15,183 nt of DNA from the IMG/VR virus record IMGVR_UViG_2706794678_000013; one strand, given 5' to 3'. The position numbers were made by a program, and so were the translations under genes. Numbering within the stretch: position 1 is the first letter of the stretch; every line of letters starts with the position of its first letter. This document shows, one piece after another, positions 2,847-14,791 of the stretch. This stretch comes from a virus. Lineage: Duplodnaviria; Heunggongvirae; Uroviricota; Caudoviricetes. The notes below the pieces were generated by a model. It searched no databases and was not told where the DNA came from. It saw only the letters and a list, made by a program, of their open reading frames with translations.

Positions 2847-5439
2847 TTGCATATTCCTTAGCCCAGCGGGGCAGTGATAACGTCTTAATAGCTGGCCATT
2901 CATCGGTATTGAGGCAGTCAGCCAGGGTTCGCAGATTGCGGTGATATTCCAGCTGACCTGCCAGTTTTGCTTCTTCGCCCATCATGAAAATTTCAACCGG
3001 ATAACGTCCGCATTCAATAGTTGTGCTGGCAACCAGAAAAACGAAAGTTGGCTGCACTCCAAACTGTGCTTCATAACCGTCACTGTAGAATGCATCCTGA
3101 ACGTGATAGCGGTAGTCGTAATAAGCGGTTTTGAATCGTTGAATATCCGCCGTAGTTTTCACGTCCATGATCCAGTGAAATTCAGGGATAATTTTGTCCG
3201 GACGGCACCGACACAAAATTGCTGTTTCAGGATCTTCCCAGTAAATTGATGATTCAGCGTGTCCGGCGCTTTCAACAAGCCATTGCCCCAGCGGCAAAGC
3301 CATAACGCTCTGATACATGAGTTCAATTTTCCGGCCTTCTTCGGCAGTGATAACCGTTTTTCCTGTGCTTGCGCATTCCCTCAGAAACGCTTTCTCTTCT
3401 TCTTTTCCGGAGTTTGTCCGGCGGTTAAATTCAGGTGCTACGATAAAGCGGTTACTGAATTCTTCCGGCTCAAGTACCCGGCAGTGGAAAGCGGTTCCTA
3501 AATCGAGCGTTTTTGTCTTTGTGGTGTCCACGGGGGCATTTTTACGCCACAAATACAGTGCCGGAGTATCAGCAATGTCATCGAGCTGAGACTTACTGAC
3601 ACCGGGACCCGCGTGGTAATTCTCATTCGAAATTCCGTAATAAATACCTGGCTCTATGTCTTCTACGATTACGGGATCTGCGACTTCGCCAGTTTCATCA
3701 CTGCAATCGCGATGCGGATCGCTGCCAGCATTCTCATTGTGCGGATGTTCAGCGCCTTCCATTTCCTCCGGATCATTTTCCTTAGCTTCAACCTGACTCT
3801 CTTCATCGAATGTTTCCTGGTATGTTGCGTCGCCCATCACCGCACCACAGTCAGGGCAGTTATCCCCGCCAGTCTGGCCGCAGGCATTGCAGGCTATTTC
3901 CGGTTCCTGTTGCACTACTGGCTCAGGTTGATTCATATCCGGGCTGGTTTTTTCCGTTTCTGGCTGGTTCTGGTACACACAATCGCGAGTCTGGATCCCC
4001 TTTACCCATTTCGGATCGTTCGGGTCGCTAATTCCGTCAACAAATTCACCACGTGATGCAGCAAGCAATTTATCGGCATCGACAGGATTTTTTGATGGAA
4101 TGTTTTTCCGGGCTTCATGGAGTTCTGCCCGCAGTTCCTGATATTTCGCATCAACAGAATTTACCTGTGACTGAGCATCCAGCGGCTGCGTGTCCTGATG
4201 ATGTTCAGTTGCGTCCGGTTCCATTGTTTCAGCCTCTCCCTGTTCAACTGCCGTTGTTCCAGATGGTTGCGGTTTTTCTTCATCATCCTGTTTTCCTTCT
4301 TCTGTTACTCGCTGCGGCATCGGGGCAGAGGAGCGACCGCAGGCAATATCCACGATTTCCGGATCAGGGTTGGCATGATCGGTTTCAGTCAGTACTTTGT
4401 TCAGATATTCAGTGACGTGCGCGGGGATGACCTCGATCCCAATTGGTGCTTCTTTTACGGACGCAACCACGATGGCGCGGGAATAATCCAGCCCGCCAGG
4501 CATGGTGATGAATTTGTCGCGGAAAACAGAAAAGGGCGGTTTATTTTCAGCGATAATTTCCTCAATGCGTTTAGCGTGTGCCGGATGAAGGTTATAGATG
4601 TCCAGATCCATTGAACGGGCCAGTACGCCAGTGGCTACGTCCCGCGCCAGTGACGTCAGATCGTGTACGAAACCTTCGCCGCGATCGGTGAGGTTTCCGC
4701 CGCCAGCATTAGCACCGGAAGCCGTGCGAGTGATGTGTGAAACACGATTACCCTTCATCCACTCTTTTGTCAGCAGTCCTCGATCGGTGTAGTCAGCGTT
4801 CAGGTATGCTTCGAAAAAAGCAGTTATCAGTCCCAGGTTTGAATTACCAGGATTAGGGAAAACTTTGTCAGTGTCACGAACCAGTTTGTGGAGTTCGCGA
4901 ATTTCCAGCGGGTCGAGCAGGCTGGTTTTGTGGGAAACAGCCAGGGCAGTAACAGCCGGTAGTTCTTCAGCCCGAGCAATGTGTAATGCCTGGAGTCCGT
5001 CGCGTGAAACGTGCGTTACCGGTTTTTCGCTGCCGTGTTGAGCAAGCCAACGAATGGGCAGTTCCTGGCCAGAAATTGGGAGTAGCATATTCTCCTCAAT
5101 CTCAGTCATGTCTTCGCCGTTGACGTTGGTATTGCCTTGATAGTGAGCGTTGTCTGGTGCTGCTCCCGGTTTTAGTTCCCATGTCATGGAGTCTTTGCTG
5201 AGTTGATAGCGTTCACTCCAGGTAAAATCGATCTCACCTTCAGCGGGCAGGTCATTAACGACAGGAAAATTCGTGGCAACAGCTTTAAAATAGCTGCTCA
5301 GTTTTTTACCTGACTTAACGANNNNNNNNNNNNNNNNNNNNNNNNNNNNNNNNNNNNNNNNNNNNNNNNNNNNNNNNNNNNNNNNNNNNNNNNNNNNNNN
5401 NNNNNNNNNNNNNNNNNNNNNNNNNNNNNNNNNNNNNNN
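2839..5439 (-). CDS. recE: RecE exonuclease VIII; 5' end (about 39 codons) lies inside the N-run, start coordinate inferred from 866-aa length
   Basis: Minus ORF with no stop between 2839 and the N-run at 5322; visible sequence ...[61 protein letters not shown] matches remembered RecE; C-terminal exonuclease domain, internal Cys cluster [16 protein letters not shown]. Track ORF start at 5187 is only the first internal Met. Confidence 0.85.
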
Positions 5440-5580
5440 NNNNNNNNNNNNNNNNNNNNNNNNNNNNNNNNNNNNNNNNNNNNNNNNNNNNNNNNNNNNN
5501 NNNNNNNNNNNNNNNNNNNNNNNNNNNNNNNNNNNNNNNNNNNNNNNNNNNNNNNNNNNNNNNNNNNNNNNNNNNNNNNN
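5322..5580. other. Run of 259 N (unresolved or masked bases)
   Basis: Direct observation; hides recE start, the racC-recE intergenic region and racC stop. Confidence 1.
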
Positions 5581-8995: not shown

Positions 8996-9853
8996 ATGCT
9001 GTTTGTGCTTATTCTAAGCCACCGGGCAGCATCATACGGGGCAATTATGGCCGCATTACCATACATGCAACTGTACATAGCTGATTACCTGGCTGACACC
9101 ATGCATTTGTCAGCAGAGGAGCATGGTGCGTATTTGTTGCTGATGTTCAATTACTGGCAAACAGGAAAGCCAATACCTAAAAACAGGCTGGCAAAAATTG
9201 CCCGTCTGACTAACGAGCGATGGGCTGATGTTGAACCATCCTTGCAGGAGTTTTTTTGCGATAACGGCGAGGAATGGGTGCATCTTCGGATTGAGGAAGA
9301 TCTGGCATCAGTCAGGGAAAAATTAACCAAAAAATCAGCCGCAGGAAAAGCATCTGTTCAGGCCAGAAGAAGCAGAAAGGAAGCAGATGTTCAAACAAAA
9401 CAAGAGAGAAATTTAACAGGTGTTCAAACAGATGTTGAAGTGGTGTTTGAACATGATGTCAACACAAAGGCAACTAATAAAGATACAGATAAAGATCTAA
9501 AAACAGATCCCCCCCTAAATCCCCCCCGGGGGAATCGAGGTGTCAAAAAGTTTGACCCTCTGGATATTGCTTTGCCGAACTGGATTTCTGTCTCGCTTTG
9601 GCGTGAGTGGGTTGAATTTCGCCAGGCATTGCGAAAACCGATTCGAACGGAGCAGGGCGCTAACGGGGCGATACGGGAGCTGGAAAAATTCCGCCAGCAG
9701 GGTTTTTCACCTGAGCAGGTGATTCGACACAGCATCGCCAATGAATACCAGGGCTTGTTCGCGCCGAAAGGTGTTCGACCTGAGACGTTACTCCGACAGG
9801 TTAACACCGTCTCGTTACCGGATAGTGCGATCCCGCCAGGCTTCAGGGGGTAA
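8996..9853 (+). CDS. ydaU: YdaU (DUF1376) replication-initiation-associated protein, 285 aa
   Basis: Plus ORF from ATG 8996 (alternative ATG 9047); conserved N-terminal LPYMQLYIADYLADTMHLSAEEHGAYLLLMFNYW; immediately upstream of the DnaC-like gene. Confidence 0.85.
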   Translation: MLFVLILSHRAASYGAIMAALPYMQLYIADYLADTMHLSAEEHGAYLLLMFNYWQTGKPIPKNRLAKIARLTNERWADVEPSLQEFFCDNGEEWVHLRIEEDLASVREKLTKKSAAGKASVQARRSRKEADVQTKQERNLTGVQTDVEVVFEHDVNTKATNKDTDKDLKTDPPLNPPRGNRGVKKFDPLDIALPNWISVSLWREWVEFRQALRKPIRTEQGANGAIRELEKFRQQGFSPEQVIRHSIANEYQGLFAPKGVRPETLLRQVNTVSLPDSAIPPGFRG

Positions 9854-10148
9854 CTGACCATGAAAAATATTGCGACAGGCGACGTTCTTGAACGTATCCG
9901 CAGACTGGCCCCGTCACATGTAACCGCGCCATTCAAGACGGTAGCGGAGTGGCGCGAGTGGCAACTTTCCGAAGGCCAGAAACGTTGTGAGGAGATCAAC
10001 CGTCAGAATCGTCAGTTGCGGGTGGAAAAAATTCTGAATCGCTCTGGCATCCAGCCATTGCACCGCAAATGCTCGTTTTCGAATTACCAGGTGCAGAACG
10101 AAGCGCAGCGATACGCGTTGAGTCAGGCGAAATCCATCGCTGATGAAC
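9590..10148 (+). repeat. Repeat unit A: ydaU 3' end plus ydaV 5' end; diverged duplicate of 10691-11249 (offset 1101 bp)
   Basis: Collinear nucleotide and protein similarity to the second copy; about 6 differences in the first 60 nt of ydaV counted by eye. Confidence 0.8.
9860..10148 (+). CDS. ydaV: YdaV DnaC-like helicase loader, copy 1, 5' portion only (about 96 codons) before N-run
   Basis: ATG 9860, 6 nt after ydaU stop; MKNIATGDVLERIRRLAPSHVTAPFKTVAEWREWQLSEGQKRCEEINRQNRQLRVEKILNRSGIQPLHRKCSFSNYQVQNEAQRYALSQAKSIADE then Ns. Confidence 0.6.
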
Positions 10149-10398
10149 NNNNNNNNNNNNNNNNNNNNNNNNNNNNNNNNNNNNNNNNNNNNNNNNNNNN
10201 NNNNNNNNNNNNNNNNNNNNNNNNNNNNNNNNNNNNNNNNNNNNNNNNNNNNNNNNNNNNNNNNNNNNNNNNNNNNNNNNNNNNNNNNNNNNNNNNNNNN
10301 NNNNNNNNNNNNNNNNNNNNNNNNNNNNNNNNNNNNNNNNNNNNNNNNNNNNNNNNNNNNNNNNNNNNNNNNNNNNNNNNNNNNNNNNNNNNNNNNNN
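10149..10398. other. Run of 250 N (unresolved or masked bases) hiding the junction between ydaV copy 1 and a second ydaU-like segment
   Basis: Direct observation. Confidence 1.
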
Positions 10399-10954
10399 GC
10401 GTTAATTCAGGTTGGATGGCTGGTCGAAAATGACGGAGGGCTTTCTCTACCTAACTTTGAACGTCATAACGGAAAAAGCTCTAAAAAAAACGGGCGGTTA
10501 CAAACGAGCGAGTAACAAAAATACGCGAACTGAAACGAAAAGGTAACGCTGCCAGCGTTACACAAACGGATCAAAAAGCGTTACCAGAGGAAGAGGAAGA
10601 GGAAGATCTAAATACTGATCTCCCCCTCGCCAAAAACGAGCGTCTAAAAAATTCGAGCCGGAGGCTATTGAGCTGCCCGATTGGTTGCCGGAAACACTCT
10701 GGCATGAGTGGGTCCGGTTCAGACAGGCATTGCGAAAACCGATTCGAACGGAGCAGGGCGCTAACGGGGCGATACGGGAACTGGAAAAATTCCGTCAGCA
10801 GGGTTTTACACCTGAGCAGGTGATTCGACACAGCATCGCCAATGAATACCAGGGCCTGTTCGCGCCGAAAGGTGTTCGGCCTGAGACGTTGCTCCGACAG
10901 GTTAACACCGTCTCGTTGCCGGACAGTGCGATCCCGCCAGGCTTCAGGGGGTAA
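10399..10954 (+). pseudogene. Second, diverged ydaU-like 3' segment, 5'-truncated and interrupted by two apparent 1-nt frameshifts in poly-A runs
   Basis: Three consecutive frames must be joined to follow the ydaU-like protein: ...ENDGGLSLPNFERHNGKSSKK (stop 10513-10515) / RAVTNERVTKIRELKRKGNAASVTQTDQKALPEEEEEEDLNTDLPLAKNER / KKFEPEAIELPDWLPETLWHEWVRFRQALRKPIRTEQGANGAIRELEKFRQQGFTPEQVIRHSIANEYQGLFAPKGVRPETLLRQVNTVSLPDSAIPPGFRG; shifts coincide with A8 (10483-10490) and A6 (10646-10651). Confidence 0.5.
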
Positions 10955-11256
10955 CGGACCATGAAAAATATTGCGACAGGCGGCGTTCTGGAACGCATCC
11001 GCCGACTGACCCCGCCACATGTAACCGCCCCATTCAGAACGGTAGCGGAGTGGCGCGAGTGGCAACTTGCTGAAGGCCAGAAACGTAGCGAGGAGATCAA
11101 CCGCCTGAATCGCCAGTTGCGGGTGGAAAAAATTCTGAATCGCTCAGGCATCCAGCCGTTGCACCGTAAATGCTCGTTTGCGAATTACCAGGTGCAGAAC
11201 GACGGCCAGCGATACGCGTTAAGCCAGGCGAAATCCATCGCCGATGAACTGATGAC
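10691..11256 (+). repeat. Repeat unit B: second copy of ydaU 3' end plus ydaV 5' end; its last 225 bp (11032-11256) are identical to 11511-11735
   Basis: Direct comparison of the sequence on both sides of the N-run 11257-11510. Confidence 0.85.
10961..11256 (+). CDS. ydaV: YdaV DnaC-like helicase loader, copy 2, 5' portion before N-run (may be the same gene as 11511-12186 if the N-run is a scaffolding gap)
   Basis: ATG 10961; MKNIATGGVLERIRRLTPPHVTAPFRTVAEWREWQLAEGQKRSEEINRLNRQLRVEKILNRSGIQPLHRKCSFANYQVQNDGQRYALSQAKSIADELM then Ns. Confidence 0.55.
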
Positions 11257-11510
11257 NNNNNNNNNNNNNNNNNNNNNNNNNNNNNNNNNNNNNNNNNNNN
11301 NNNNNNNNNNNNNNNNNNNNNNNNNNNNNNNNNNNNNNNNNNNNNNNNNNNNNNNNNNNNNNNNNNNNNNNNNNNNNNNNNNNNNNNNNNNNNNNNNNNN
11401 NNNNNNNNNNNNNNNNNNNNNNNNNNNNNNNNNNNNNNNNNNNNNNNNNNNNNNNNNNNNNNNNNNNNNNNNNNNNNNNNNNNNNNNNNNNNNNNNNNNN
11501 NNNNNNNNNN
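11257..11510. other. Run of 254 N flanked by identical 225-bp sequence on both sides
   Basis: Direct observation. Confidence 1.
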
Positions 11511-12186
11511 ATTCAGAACGGTAGCGGAGTGGCGCGAGTGGCAACTTGCTGAAGGCCAGAAACGTAGCGAGGAGATCAACCGCCTGAATCGCCAGTTGCG
11601 GGTGGAAAAAATTCTGAATCGCTCAGGCATCCAGCCGTTGCACCGTAAATGCTCGTTTGCGAATTACCAGGTGCAGAACGACGGCCAGCGATACGCGTTA
11701 AGCCAGGCGAAATCCATCGCCGATGAACTGATGACCGGGTGTACAAATTTTGCGTTCAGCGGAAAACCTGGTACCGGGAAGAATCACTTAGCGGCAGCTA
11801 TCGGGAATCGCCTGCTGAAAGACGGTCAGACAGTGATTGTGGTTACCGTGGCTGATGTTATGAGTGCCCTGCACGCCAGCTATGACGATGGGCAGTCAGG
11901 CGAAAAATTTTTGCGGGAACTATGCGAAGTGGATCTGCTGGTTCTTGATGAAATTGGCATTCAGCGCGAGACGAAAAACGAGCAGGTGGTGCTGCACCAG
12001 ATTGTTGATCGCCGGACAGCGTCGATGCGCAGCGTGGGGATGCTGACAAACCTGAACTATGAGGTGATGAAAACATTGCTCGGCGAGCGGGTGATGGATC
12101 GCATGGTCATGAACGGCGGGCGCTGGGTGAATTTTAACTGGGAGAGCTGGCGTCCGAATGTTAGCCATTCGAGGGTTGTTAAGTAG
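11511..12186 (+). CDS. ydaV: YdaV DnaC-like AAA+ helicase loader, 3' portion from about codon 25 to stop (Walker A and B present)
   Basis: Frame FRTVAEWREWQ... continuing through Walker A GKPGTGKNHLAAAIG and Walker B LLVLDEIG to stop TAG 12184-12186; no start codon visible because sequence begins at N-run. Confidence 0.75.
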
Positions 12187-12200
12187 TTTCAGGAGGATTT

Positions 12201-12623
12201 ATGGCGAAACCTTTTACTCCCGAACAGCGGGAAGAACTGAAGACGCGAATTGTGGAACTCGTGCATCAGGACGGTCGGGTCACGATTCGGCAGTTGTCAG
12301 ATGAAACAGGTATCAGTCGTGCGTCTGTCGGTCGCTTATGCATAGAACTGGTCGCAAGTGGTGATGTATATAATTCTGGCTACGGCTTATTCCCGTCTGA
12401 ACAGGCTCGCAAGGACTGGCAAAGCGCCCGCAAAAAACTCTCGAGAGTAAAGGTGAGGAAACCGGTTGTTGTTGATCCGGACCTTATCTGGTCATTACCT
12501 GACGGAGAAATACGCCGCTACGACAGGCGCCTGAATATAATCTGTCGCGAGTGCCGGAAGAGCGAAGCTATGCAGCGTGTACTGGCTTTCTATCAGGGTA
12601 ATTTTCAGGAGGCGATACTGTGA
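12201..12623 (+). CDS. Ren-like protein (homologue of phage lambda Ren, winged-helix N-terminus), 140 aa
   Basis: ATG 12201 with AGGAGG RBS; C-terminal ICRECRKSEAMQRVLAFY resembles lambda Ren ...KECRQSAAMKRVLAVY as I recall it; position directly after the helicase-loader gene matches lambda ren. Confidence 0.7.
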   Translation: MAKPFTPEQREELKTRIVELVHQDGRVTIRQLSDETGISRASVGRLCIELVASGDVYNSGYGLFPSEQARKDWQSARKKLSRVKVRKPVVVDPDLIWSLPDGEIRRYDRRLNIICRECRKSEAMQRVLAFYQGNFQEAIL

Positions 12624-13037
12624 ATGAAATTAGCTATCAGGCTTCAATTACCGCTGGCATTCGCATCAAAGGAGAGGAGCATGGAAATAAAACCAGAAGA
12701 TGAGTTAAGCAATATCGTTTTATTTCCGGTAAAAGAGGATGACCCTCGTAATCAGGTTAATTTTCTTTATGAGCCATCGGAAAGACCATATTGCCATCAC
12801 GCCTCTGTACGGGTTGACGAAAAAGAGCGTCAGGTCCGCTGTAAAATCTGCGGTGCGGTTGTGGAGCCGTTTGACTGGATGCTCTCTGTGGCAAAAAGAG
12901 AAACCAGACTGGCAGATGATGTAAGGCTATTGCGCCAGGAGGAACAGGAAAGGCGGAGAAATATAGAAAAGCTGATACAGATTGAGCGTAACGCGAAAGC
13001 GCGGATACGCAGGGCGACAAAATCCAGAACTGAATAA
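12624..13037 (+). CDS. Hypothetical protein with Cys/His cluster (CHH...CKIC, zinc-ribbon-like) and basic coiled-coil tail; 137 aa (alternative start 12681 gives 118 aa)
   Basis: ATG 12624 directly follows the Ren-like stop with AGGAGG 11 nt upstream; internal ATG 12681 also has an AGGAG RBS. No family recognised. Confidence 0.6.
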   Translation: MKLAIRLQLPLAFASKERSMEIKPEDELSNIVLFPVKEDDPRNQVNFLYEPSERPYCHHASVRVDEKERQVRCKICGAVVEPFDWMLSVAKRETRLADDVRLLRQEEQERRRNIEKLIQIERNAKARIRRATKSRTE

Positions 13038-13184
13038 TTAAATTTAGCACTGTTAAAAATTTAATCCTTAACCGGAGGGATTTCTGCACCCTCAAATCAT
13101 CAGGAGACCACCCGAAAGGGCGGGGAGCAGTCACACATCTGTTTCCGATAGCCCCGTTCTAATGCTACACTCTTTGATATTTTT

Positions 13185-13922: not shown

Positions 13923-13984
13923 GACTGCGGGTGCTTGAGGCTATCTGCTTCAGGCATGAACACCAAAAGGCAGATAGAGAAAAG

Positions 13985-14050
13985 CCCCAGTTAACATTAC
14001 GCGTCCGGCAAGACGCTTAACATTAATCTGAGGCCAATTTCATGCTTTGC
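13985..14050 (-). ncRNA. sok: Predicted Sok-like antisense RNA (antitoxin of the hok module); coordinates approximate
   Basis: By analogy with hok/sok of plasmid R1: minus-strand promoter-like TTGCCT (complement of 14081-14086), 17-nt spacer, TAACCT (complement of 14057-14062), giving an antisense transcript complementary to the mok leader and start. Not directly demonstrable from sequence. Confidence 0.3.
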
Positions 14051-14254
14051 ACATGTAGGTTAGCCTCTTACATGCCGAAAGGCAAGGAGAAGCAGGCTAT
14101 GAAGCAGCAAAAGGCGATGTTAATCGCCCTGATCGTCATCTGTTTAACCGTCATAGTGACGGCACTGGTAACGAGGAAAGACCTCTGTGAGGTACGAATC
14201 CGAACCGGCCAGACGGAGGTCGCTGTCTTCGTAGACTACGAATCCAGGAAGTAA
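14042..14254 (+). CDS. mok: Mok-like in-frame upstream reading frame of the hok module, 70 aa
   Basis: ATG 14042 in frame with hok; N-terminal extension MLCTCRLASYMPKGKEKQA resembles remembered MokC (MLNTCRVPLTDRKVKEKRA...). Confidence 0.5.
   Translation: MLCTCRLASYMPKGKEKQAMKQQKAMLIALIVICLTVIVTALVTRKDLCEVRIRTGQTEVAVFVDYESRK
14099..14254 (+). CDS. hok: Hok/Gef-family type I toxin (HokD/RelF-like), 51 aa single-TM peptide
   Basis: MKQQKAMLIALIVICLTVIVTALVTRKDLCEVRIRTGQTEVAVFVDYESRK; AAGGAG RBS 9 nt upstream; near-identical over the first 45 aa to remembered HokD and HokC, divergent C-terminus. Confidence 0.85.
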   Translation: MKQQKAMLIALIVICLTVIVTALVTRKDLCEVRIRTGQTEVAVFVDYESRK

Positions 14255-14503: not shown

Positions 14504-14791
14504 ATGAAAATCGAAGAATTGCGTGAAATTTTTAGTGAAAATGGCCTCTATGCTGTGCGCGTTGAGAATGGAGCGATTGTCAGCCATTGCCGCATTAGAT
14601 GTTTGCAATCTCAACAAAGGAAGAGCGGTGCTGTGTTATTTTATTTTTGTAATGGACTTCTGACGGACGGTTTTATTTTGCGTGAGGACGAATTTGTCAC
14701 ATCATTACGGGTTTTGAAAGAGATTGGTTTTAAGGCTGGTTTTCTGCTTTTGCTGAAGAATAAACTCATCTACAATCTTGAGCAGGATTGA
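14504..14791 (+). CDS. Hypothetical protein, 95 aa
   Basis: ATG 14504 with GGAAGGA RBS 8 nt upstream; no family recognised. Confidence 0.55.
   Translation: MKIEELREIFSENGLYAVRVENGAIVSHCRIRCLQSQQRKSGAVLFYFCNGLLTDGFILREDEFVTSLRVLKEIGFKAGFLLLLKNKLIYNLEQD

Follow-up and report, generated by a model that had tools for sequence, protein, structure and literature searches.

A Ren-like gene and a widespread, predicted zinc-ribbon gene as probable chance neighbours in a Rac-like prophage

Behind its helicase-loader gene, the prophage in IMG/VR virus record IMGVR_UViG_2706794678_000013 (a stretch of 15,183 nucleotides (nt), here called the window) holds two open reading frames (ORFs), and the locus raises the question of whether they form one functional unit and what the second of them encodes. 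ORF1 ends with the stop codon at 12621-12623 and is abutted by an ATG at 12624, which opens a frame of 137 amino acids (aa) running to 13037 and containing ORF2. An earlier note on this DNA gave these coordinates, and the extent of ORF1 (12201-12623), correctly; it described the frames as a tightly coupled pair, the first resembling lambda Ren at its C-terminus and the second belonging to no family that could be named, with a possible part in exclusion or counter-defence. Our analysis indicates that the supposed two-gene cassette is most probably a chance juxtaposition, and it corrects the gene model of ORF2 to 118 aa from 12681. ORF2 emerges as a very common 'known unknown', a member of a very large family that is strongly constrained by purifying selection, with a clear predicted zinc-ribbon and zipper design and no Pfam model.

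In RefSeq, ORF2 is modelled with 118 aa from the ATG that matches 12681, and the profile phrog_1621, which matches at 5.1e-56 over profile positions 1-120 of 134, aligns with residues 20-136 of the 137-aa reading and thus begins at its residue 20. All of the homologues in a first alignment (25/25) start at the methionine of 12681, and one abundant variant has GTG at this codon. Nucleotide homology to the window starts at 12651-12653 in ~35 of ~110 related loci, and in an alignment of seven sequences unrelated upstream DNAs converge on GCTGGCATTCGCATCAAAGGAGAGGAGCATG, a leader of 28 nt that precedes ATG 12681 and includes a strong Shine-Dalgarno sequence. The conserved start, together with the convergence at ~12653, indicates that the abutment of stop and start codons arose only from choosing the longest ORF. 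ORF2 therefore starts at ATG 12681, not 12624, which leaves ORF1 and ORF2 57 nt apart with a recombination joint in the spacer, and the tight coupling described in the earlier note does not survive this correction. Residue numbers below refer to the 118-aa reading unless stated otherwise.

ORF2 is a real gene and more than a chance ORF. Invariant residues of its C-terminal helix use two to five synonymous codons across 11 homologues that are 48-72% identical to it, with five synonymous codons each for L98, R108 and R110; this free variation at synonymous sites places the conservation of the helix at the level of the protein. An overlapping DNA or RNA element was rejected as its source on the same grounds, and the helix region has no Rfam match and no consensus promoters or terminators. 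A conserved antisense ORF on the minus strand (12757-13134) was likewise rejected, as it is not kept open. No consensus promoter or terminator was found in 13038-13123; ORF2 has no promoter of its own and is read from the delayed-early rightward transcript.

Comparison of related loci shows that ORF2 is a free-standing, self-contained mosaic module of ~12653-13123, the end-points of blastn alignments gathering at 13081, 13085 and 13123 (~90 loci). Of 5426 complete E. coli genomes, 1679 (31%) carry the 385-nt module at an identity of at least 90%, with up to five copies per genome, always annotated as 'hypothetical protein', and the exact 118-aa sequence occurs on at least 1000 contigs. The gene immediately upstream of ORF2 was of at least seven kinds among 113 loci, namely DUF977 (49), Ead/Ea22-like (34), YbcO/DUF1364-like (5), RusA (4), NinG (3), PF04447-type hydrolase (4) and others, and the downstream neighbour is equally varied. 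Most E. coli copies have a DUF977 gene at most 1.5 kb upstream, but the DUF977 alleles range from 53% to 100% identity beside ORF2 copies of 97-100% identity, and another gene, for example an Ead/Ea22-like one, is often inserted between the two. The E. coli contexts include the leftward early operon of Shiga toxin (Stx) phages; in the Stx phage ArgO145, ORF2 belongs to another early region, where an Ead/Ea22-like gene precedes it and PAPS-reductase, DUF2303 and Ea22-like genes surround it. In prophages of Klebsiella, Serratia, Erwinia, Pantoea, Photorhabdus and Kluyvera, ORF2 closes the nin region: YlcG and/or the Q antiterminator follow immediately, the start of ORF2 overlaps the stop of the preceding nin gene (mostly of the YbcO, RusA or NinG type), and no DUF977 gene is nearby. 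The varied neighbours, the mosaic joint and the diverging DUF977 alleles argue that ORF1 and ORF2 are adjacent by mosaic accident and do not form a cassette. A comparison of this slot across related prophages had been proposed in the earlier note, and its outcome is that the DUF977 gene is one upstream neighbour among several and the pair is not a unit.

Rare chimeric proteins join all or part of ORF2 to adjoining prophage genes: Ead/Ea22::ORF2 (P0007, P0121), ORF2::DUF1133 (P0022), DUF1627::ORF2 (P0031) and ORF2::DUF977 (P0041). Being single-sequence chimeras, these and other fusions were rejected as Rosetta-stone evidence. In ArgO145 the Ead/Ea22-like coding sequence overlaps the start of ORF2 by 23 nt in another frame, where a frameshift would give a fusion. 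Distant relatives of ORF2 on IMG/VR contigs (L116, L118, L119) adjoin PAPS-reductase-like (NinC-like) and DNA-methyltransferase-like genes, which echo the order PAPS reductase, Ea22-like, ORF2 in phages ArgO145 and Tyrion. The five IMG/VR loci with distant members are mostly rich in guanine and cytosine (high-GC) and naive ORF calls in them are unreliable, and they showed only PAPS-reductase-like and DNA-methylase-like neighbours; a tblastn search of isolated phages for the context of distant members returned only the same enterobacterial loci.

ORF1 is an ordinary and very common member of the known but poorly understood Ren/DUF977 family. Its RefSeq entry is WP_001118169.1, 'DUF977 family protein', and all 848 matches carry the name DUF977. 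Pfam DUF977 matches residues 1-136 over the whole profile and passes the gathering threshold (1.1e-33; 116.5 bits, cut-off 22.1), and the winged-helix model HTH_24 also scores above its cut-off (26 bits against 21.9). The profile phrog_142 ('Ren-like exclusion protein') matches ORF1 at 2.7e-44 over profile positions 1-115 of 116 and lambda Ren at 1.6e-41 over positions 11-110, so that the likeness to Ren, which the earlier note had seen at the C-terminus, extends over the full length and places both proteins in PHROG 142. ORF1 consists of a winged-helix N-terminus (approximately aa 1-60), a basic linker (aa 61-100) with an isoelectric point (pI) of 10.3, and a Ren-type C-terminal motif (aa 112-131), CR-x-S-x-AM-x-RVLA-x-Y, in which BLASTP finds 12 of 20 residues identical between ORF1 112-131 and Ren 73-92. 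Ren shares the N-terminal fold type, giving matches to MarR-like helix-turn-helix (HTH) models, and its gene has the same position directly after a helicase-loader gene: the ydaV-like IstB/DnaC-like loader gene ends at 12186, just before ORF1, and lambda P ends at 40283, with ren starting at 40280. The two proteins differ in length (96 aa for Ren, the surplus of ORF1 being the basic linker), in that pairwise BLAST finds only the 20-residue motif and Ren gives no match to Pfam DUF977 at E <= 0.01, and in the adjoining loader, which for ORF1 is DnaC/IstB-like and not lambda P. ORF1 thus rides with the replication module, directly 3' of the DnaC-like loader gene. YdaW of the Rac prophage has the same gene order, ydaU-ydaV-ydaW; the K-12 copy of ydaW is truncated, and the copy in the window is full length. 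Recurrent mosaic joints lie within the DUF977 gene at 12341, 12495 and 12600, and in several loci nucleotide similarity to the window is confined to ORF2 and the C-terminal part of DUF977 that holds the Ren motif, the N-terminal winged-helix part being another allele. A literature search on DUF977 found nothing useful.

That ORF1 and ORF2 make up a translationally coupled cassette for exclusion or counter-defence is very improbable, and the comparative data largely refute it. The idea draws on the DUF977 gene close upstream of most E. coli copies of ORF2, and on reports about the relatives of ORF1: Ren takes its name from resistance to Rex exclusion, and recent work describes it as 'likely involved in DNA replication' and as making two-hybrid contacts with Rex proteins (bioRxiv 10.1101/2021.04.19.439022); an over-expression screen scored K-12 ydaW as blocking the retron-Sen2 toxin (bioRxiv 10.1101/2020.06.22.160242). 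These points are outweighed by the artefactual stop/start abutment, the joint between the genes, the near-constancy of ORF2 beside divergent DUF977 alleles and behind inserted genes, the lack of DUF977 near ORF2 in other genera, and the single-sequence nature of the ORF2-DUF977 chimeras. No Rex system is visible in the window, and we found no evidence linking ORF2 to exclusion or counter-defence: PADLOC-DB gave no match for ORF2 at E <= 1 and, for ORF1, only weak generic HTH matches at E >= 0.0017.

The identity and architecture of ORF2 can be stated with high confidence. Its conservation was assessed in an alignment of 137 sequences, in which the Cys/His cluster and basic helical tail pointed out in the earlier note are borne out, the ligands being invariant or nearly so: C38, C54 and C57 are invariant, and position 40 is His in 130 sequences and Cys in 7 (C57, H59, C73 and C76 in 137-aa numbering). 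The first His of 'CHH' is not conserved. An AlphaFold2 (AF2) model made with this alignment has a mean predicted local distance difference test score (pLDDT) of 86, and a shallower alignment gave the same topology. The ribbon strands (43-46 and 51-54) form a beta-hairpin with pLDDT ~92, and the four conserved ligands on its two knuckles place the model in the zinc-ribbon fold class, with zinc binding predicted. The N-terminal segment is acidic (aa 1-36, pI 4.25), with positions 12, 13 and 15 hydrophobic in at least 95% of the sequences, and low pLDDT suggests that it may be flexible. The C-terminal helix carries a heptad of L77, V81, L84, E88, R91 (Leu in the family consensus), I95 and L98; hydrophobic residues recur every 3-4 positions from 77 to 116, and Leu is the family majority at 77, 84, 91 and 98, where the protein of the window has R91. 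The heptad is contiguous with a near-invariant basic block, E102-R-N-A-K-A-R-[IL]-[RK]-R-A112 (ERNAKARIRRA in ORF2), with N104, K106 and R108 ~90-99% conserved and R110 and R111 also conserved. Several members from outside Escherichia (L012, L015, L016, L017, L026, L005) have an additional conserved C-terminal tail, (K)EPLPLWQNE(R)VE, which is absent from the E. coli protein and looks like a second short docking motif.

Searches of sequence and structure databases place ORF2 in one known group. It is a plain member of PHROG 1621 (related: 8538, 4865), a phage family of unknown function, and a profile search of 1.84 billion representative proteins retrieved 1487 clusters (50% identity) at E <= 1e-3. 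The sequence holds nothing new, identical proteins being already present in RefSeq and PHROGs. The statement in the earlier note that the protein cannot be placed is right for Pfam, NCBIfam and PADLOC, none of which gave a match above threshold, but it fails for the phrog_1621 profile and for so abundant a protein. No Pfam family was reached by any of 100 family members scanned singly, which gave only sub-threshold TFIIB zinc-ribbon and coiled-coil noise; Zn_Ribbon_TF (PF08271) scored 21.1-21.5 bits with ORF2, under its cut-off of 29, and was sub-threshold for 16 of the 100. Sequence and profile searches of the PDB returned only S27e (E = 0.67) and coiled-coil noise, and Foldseek with the ORF2 model found no structural relative, its top match being the TFIIB ribbon at only E = 0.28. 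All annotated phage copies are 'hypothetical', the name 'LygF' is an uninformative label from a Salmonella locus, and nothing useful was found in the literature under the RefSeq accession. The earlier note had proposed these remote-homology and structure-prediction analyses, and had held that clear homology to a housekeeping nin gene, together with no phenotype in infection assays, would tell against an undescribed function. The regular nin position of ORF2 before YlcG/Q outside Escherichia goes part of the way in that direction, but homology to named nin genes was not found: lambda NinD, NinF and NinH and P22 NinX, NinY and NinZ were rejected as homologues, with hhalign probabilities of 0.06-10.5%, and tblastn of ORF2 against lambda and P22 gave no match.

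Several better known protein classes resemble parts of this architecture. TFIIB-type and primase (CHC2) ribbons likewise present four ligands, Cys/His followed by CxxC, on a beta-hairpin, and the CHC2 ligand order resembles that of DnaG-type primases; ORF2 differs in falling under every curated threshold, in its CxH spacing in place of CxxC or CxxH, and in having no attached primase or TFIIB core. Basic leucine zipper (bZIP) proteins also join a leucine heptad to a contiguous conserved helical segment rich in Asn, Arg and Lys, but ORF2 was rejected as a bZIP protein because its basic segment lies C-terminal to the zipper and reads ERNAKARIRRA as against N-xx-AA-xx-[CS]-R. DksA/TraR was rejected on the lack of a Pfam match, on CHCC and not C4 ligands, and on a predicted single helix in place of the two-helix hairpin. 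Comparison by eye also rejected the N-terminal motif as a mimic of the beta-clamp motif (QL[SD]LF) or the SSB tip (DDDIPF-COOH), both being a poor fit.

From this architecture we tentatively propose, with low confidence, that ORF2 is a dimeric nucleic-acid-binding accessory protein. A lone amphipathic helix of 55 residues with a canonical heptad would have to pair, most simply as a parallel coiled-coil homodimer, and such a dimer would hold its two zinc ribbons at one end and expose an Arg/Lys/Asn-rich surface at the other, where the conserved basic end of the helix would be the functional surface. This surface is conserved across enterobacterial, high-GC and low-GC relatives, and it is the same regardless of the immunity, replication, resolvase and Q modules of the phage. 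Because it is independent of phage modules and kept in distant lineages, its ligand should be universal; we take this ligand to be nucleic acid, recognised by structure or backbone and not by sequence. ORF2 would accordingly be a small, early-phase DNA- or RNA-binding accessory protein that acts in replication, recombination or the late switch. Taken together with the assignment of ORF1, this is our best overall explanation of both genes, to which we give a probability of about 0.4.

A positional counterpart exists in lambda NinH, a small protein encoded in the nin region between the junction resolvase gene (ninG) and Q. NinH binds and bends DNA as a homodimer (PMC7166090), and DNA binding by a homodimer is also the mechanism proposed for ORF2. 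The two proteins are unlike in fold, NinH being a Fis-like HTH protein and ORF2 a predicted zinc ribbon plus zipper. The same nin position invites the view that ORF2 is a cofactor or regulator of its nin neighbours, modulating the upstream Holliday-junction resolvase (RusA, NinG, YbcO) or the timing or activity of the downstream Q. We consider this doubtful. Outside Escherichia the start of ORF2 overlaps the stop of genes from three non-homologous families that are annotated or taken as junction resolvases (YbcO 5, RusA 4, NinG 3), and YlcG/Q follows, but all nin genes overlap in this way, which makes the overlap weak evidence; the adjoining resolvase and Q types are non-homologous, yet the helix of ORF2 is unchanged; and the 97-100% identical E. 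coli copies are remote from resolvase and Q genes alike, following DUF977 or Ead/Ea22-like genes, also in the leftward early operon of Stx phages.

Several considerations weigh against the proposal that ORF2 binds nucleic acid. The analogy with NinH is positional only (hhalign 0.2%). The hydrophobic heptad runs on through the basic segment (I109, A112, L116), so the helices may stay zipped instead of splaying onto DNA. The N-terminal NVVxFP and, in some genera, the C-terminal PLPLWQN are typical protein-docking peptides, and the near-invariant surface fits a conserved protein partner equally well. These features lead to a second possibility, which we rate as unlikely, though less so than a role as nin cofactor: ORF2 may be a host-takeover or counter-defence factor whose invariant helix and/or NVVxFP motif docks on, inhibits or redirects a universally conserved host protein, for instance a defence sensor or a factor in replication, recombination or transcription. 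Conserved short linear motifs that lie in flexible stretches, an extreme surface conservation that is independent of the phage's own modules, the mobility of the module with its multiple copies per genome, and the company of the accessory genes queH and hok/sok in the window are all in keeping with it. The partner, however, is hypothetical, ORF2 has no PADLOC or other defence-related match, its N-terminal motif is by eye, not by computation, unlike the beta-clamp-binding or SSB-tip consensus, and in most genera it occupies a fixed core nin position and not a variable cargo island.

A wider and decidedly speculative reading is that ORF2 represents a large, unrecognised class of temperate-phage zinc-ribbon 'inverted bZIP' dimers, comprising ~1500 50%-identity clusters from enterobacteria to high-GC and low-GC lineages, in which the basic helix binds a structure-specific nucleic acid or a universal host machine. 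If this were true, such proteins would be a missing and widely shared participant in host takeover or the early phase of phage development, and if ORF2 binds a universal host factor or DNA structure, a gap in the lambdoid early-gene map would be filled. Since roughly one in three complete E. coli genomes carries the module, Stx phages included, ORF2 is a reasonable and cheap target for a first functional study.

The coordinates of the features discussed here are collected in Table 1. The window belongs to a lambdoid prophage of E. coli or Shigella that resembles Rac. In the list of ORFs, integrase and excisionase are followed by recT and recE, kilR and sieB, a repressor/Cro pair, and ydaT, ydaU (DUF1376) and ydaV; after the DnaC/IstB-like ydaV come ORF1, ORF2, queH, hok/sok and the start of the nin/Q region. 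The complete genome of E. coli FDAARGOS_943 holds a 99.7% identical stretch, with the RefSeq order ydaV, DUF977 family protein, hypothetical protein, QueH, HokD, DUF1367, DUF1364, DUF1133. The placing of ORF1 and ORF2 after the loader gene by the earlier note is thereby confirmed, with queH, sok and hok downstream, and the arrangement of this mosaic region is ordinary lambdoid mosaicism.

Table 1. Features of the ORF1-ORF2 locus and of the region downstream, in window coordinates.
Feature	Position	Strand	Remarks
Shine-Dalgarno sequence of ORF1, AGGAGG	12191..12196	+	Read from sequence; 4 nt before ATG 12201
ORF1, 140 aa, DUF977/YdaW-family Ren-like protein	12201..12623	+	TGA 12621-12623
Spacer belonging to the DUF977 context	12624..12652	+	Contains the non-conserved ATG 12624; unrelated in loci with an Ead/Ea22-like or other gene upstream
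Conserved leader of the ORF2 module	12653..12680	+	Shine-Dalgarno AAAGGAGAGGAG at 12669-12680; invariant in the seven-locus alignment, differing upstream contexts
ORF2, 118 aa, phrog_1621	12681..13037	+	RefSeq WP_001343130.1, 'hypothetical protein'
Motif ELSNIVLFP, aa 8-16	12702..12728	+	Family consensus: acidic residues, then N-[VI]-[VI]-x-F-P (NVVxFP)
Predicted zinc ribbon, aa 38-61	12792..12863	+	C38-x-H40-x13-C54-x2-C57, then helix cap DPFD(W/Y)L
Predicted single long helix, aa 63-117	12867..13031	+	AF2 pLDDT 97-98; pI 11.1
3' flank travelling with the ORF2 module	13038..13123	+	Right-hand mosaic joints 13081, 13085 or 13123
queH, complete epoxyqueuosine reductase gene	13185/13206-13871		Pfam 1.9e-65; cargo between ORF2 and hok/sok
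hok/sok type I toxin-antitoxin locus	13929-14254
sok	13929-14104	+ (reported)	Rfam 117 bits; overlaps 5' part of hok ORF
hok ORF	14042-14254		Pfam HOK_GEF 9.8e-23

For queH, RefSeq uses the ATG equivalent to 13206, not 13185, as the start, and of 110 related loci only 15 carry the gene downstream of ORF2. The Rfam sok model is reported on the same strand as hok. Between hok and the DUF1367 gene, a 95-aa ORF (14504-14791) has no Pfam match and is labelled hypothetical in RefSeq. Four runs of N, of 250-310 each, interrupt the window at 1658-1967, 5322-5580, 10149-10398 and 11257-11510. The sequence at 11032-11256 is 100% identical to that at 11511-11735, the two flanking one N run, and 9520-10155 is 84-88% identical to 10621-11256; through these repeats the 3' end of ydaU and the 5' end of ydaV appear two to three times. 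The repeats look like scaffolding or masking in a draft assembly, possibly of two merged Rac-like alleles, more than a real tandem duplication, and the near-identical complete genome has a single ydaU-ydaV.

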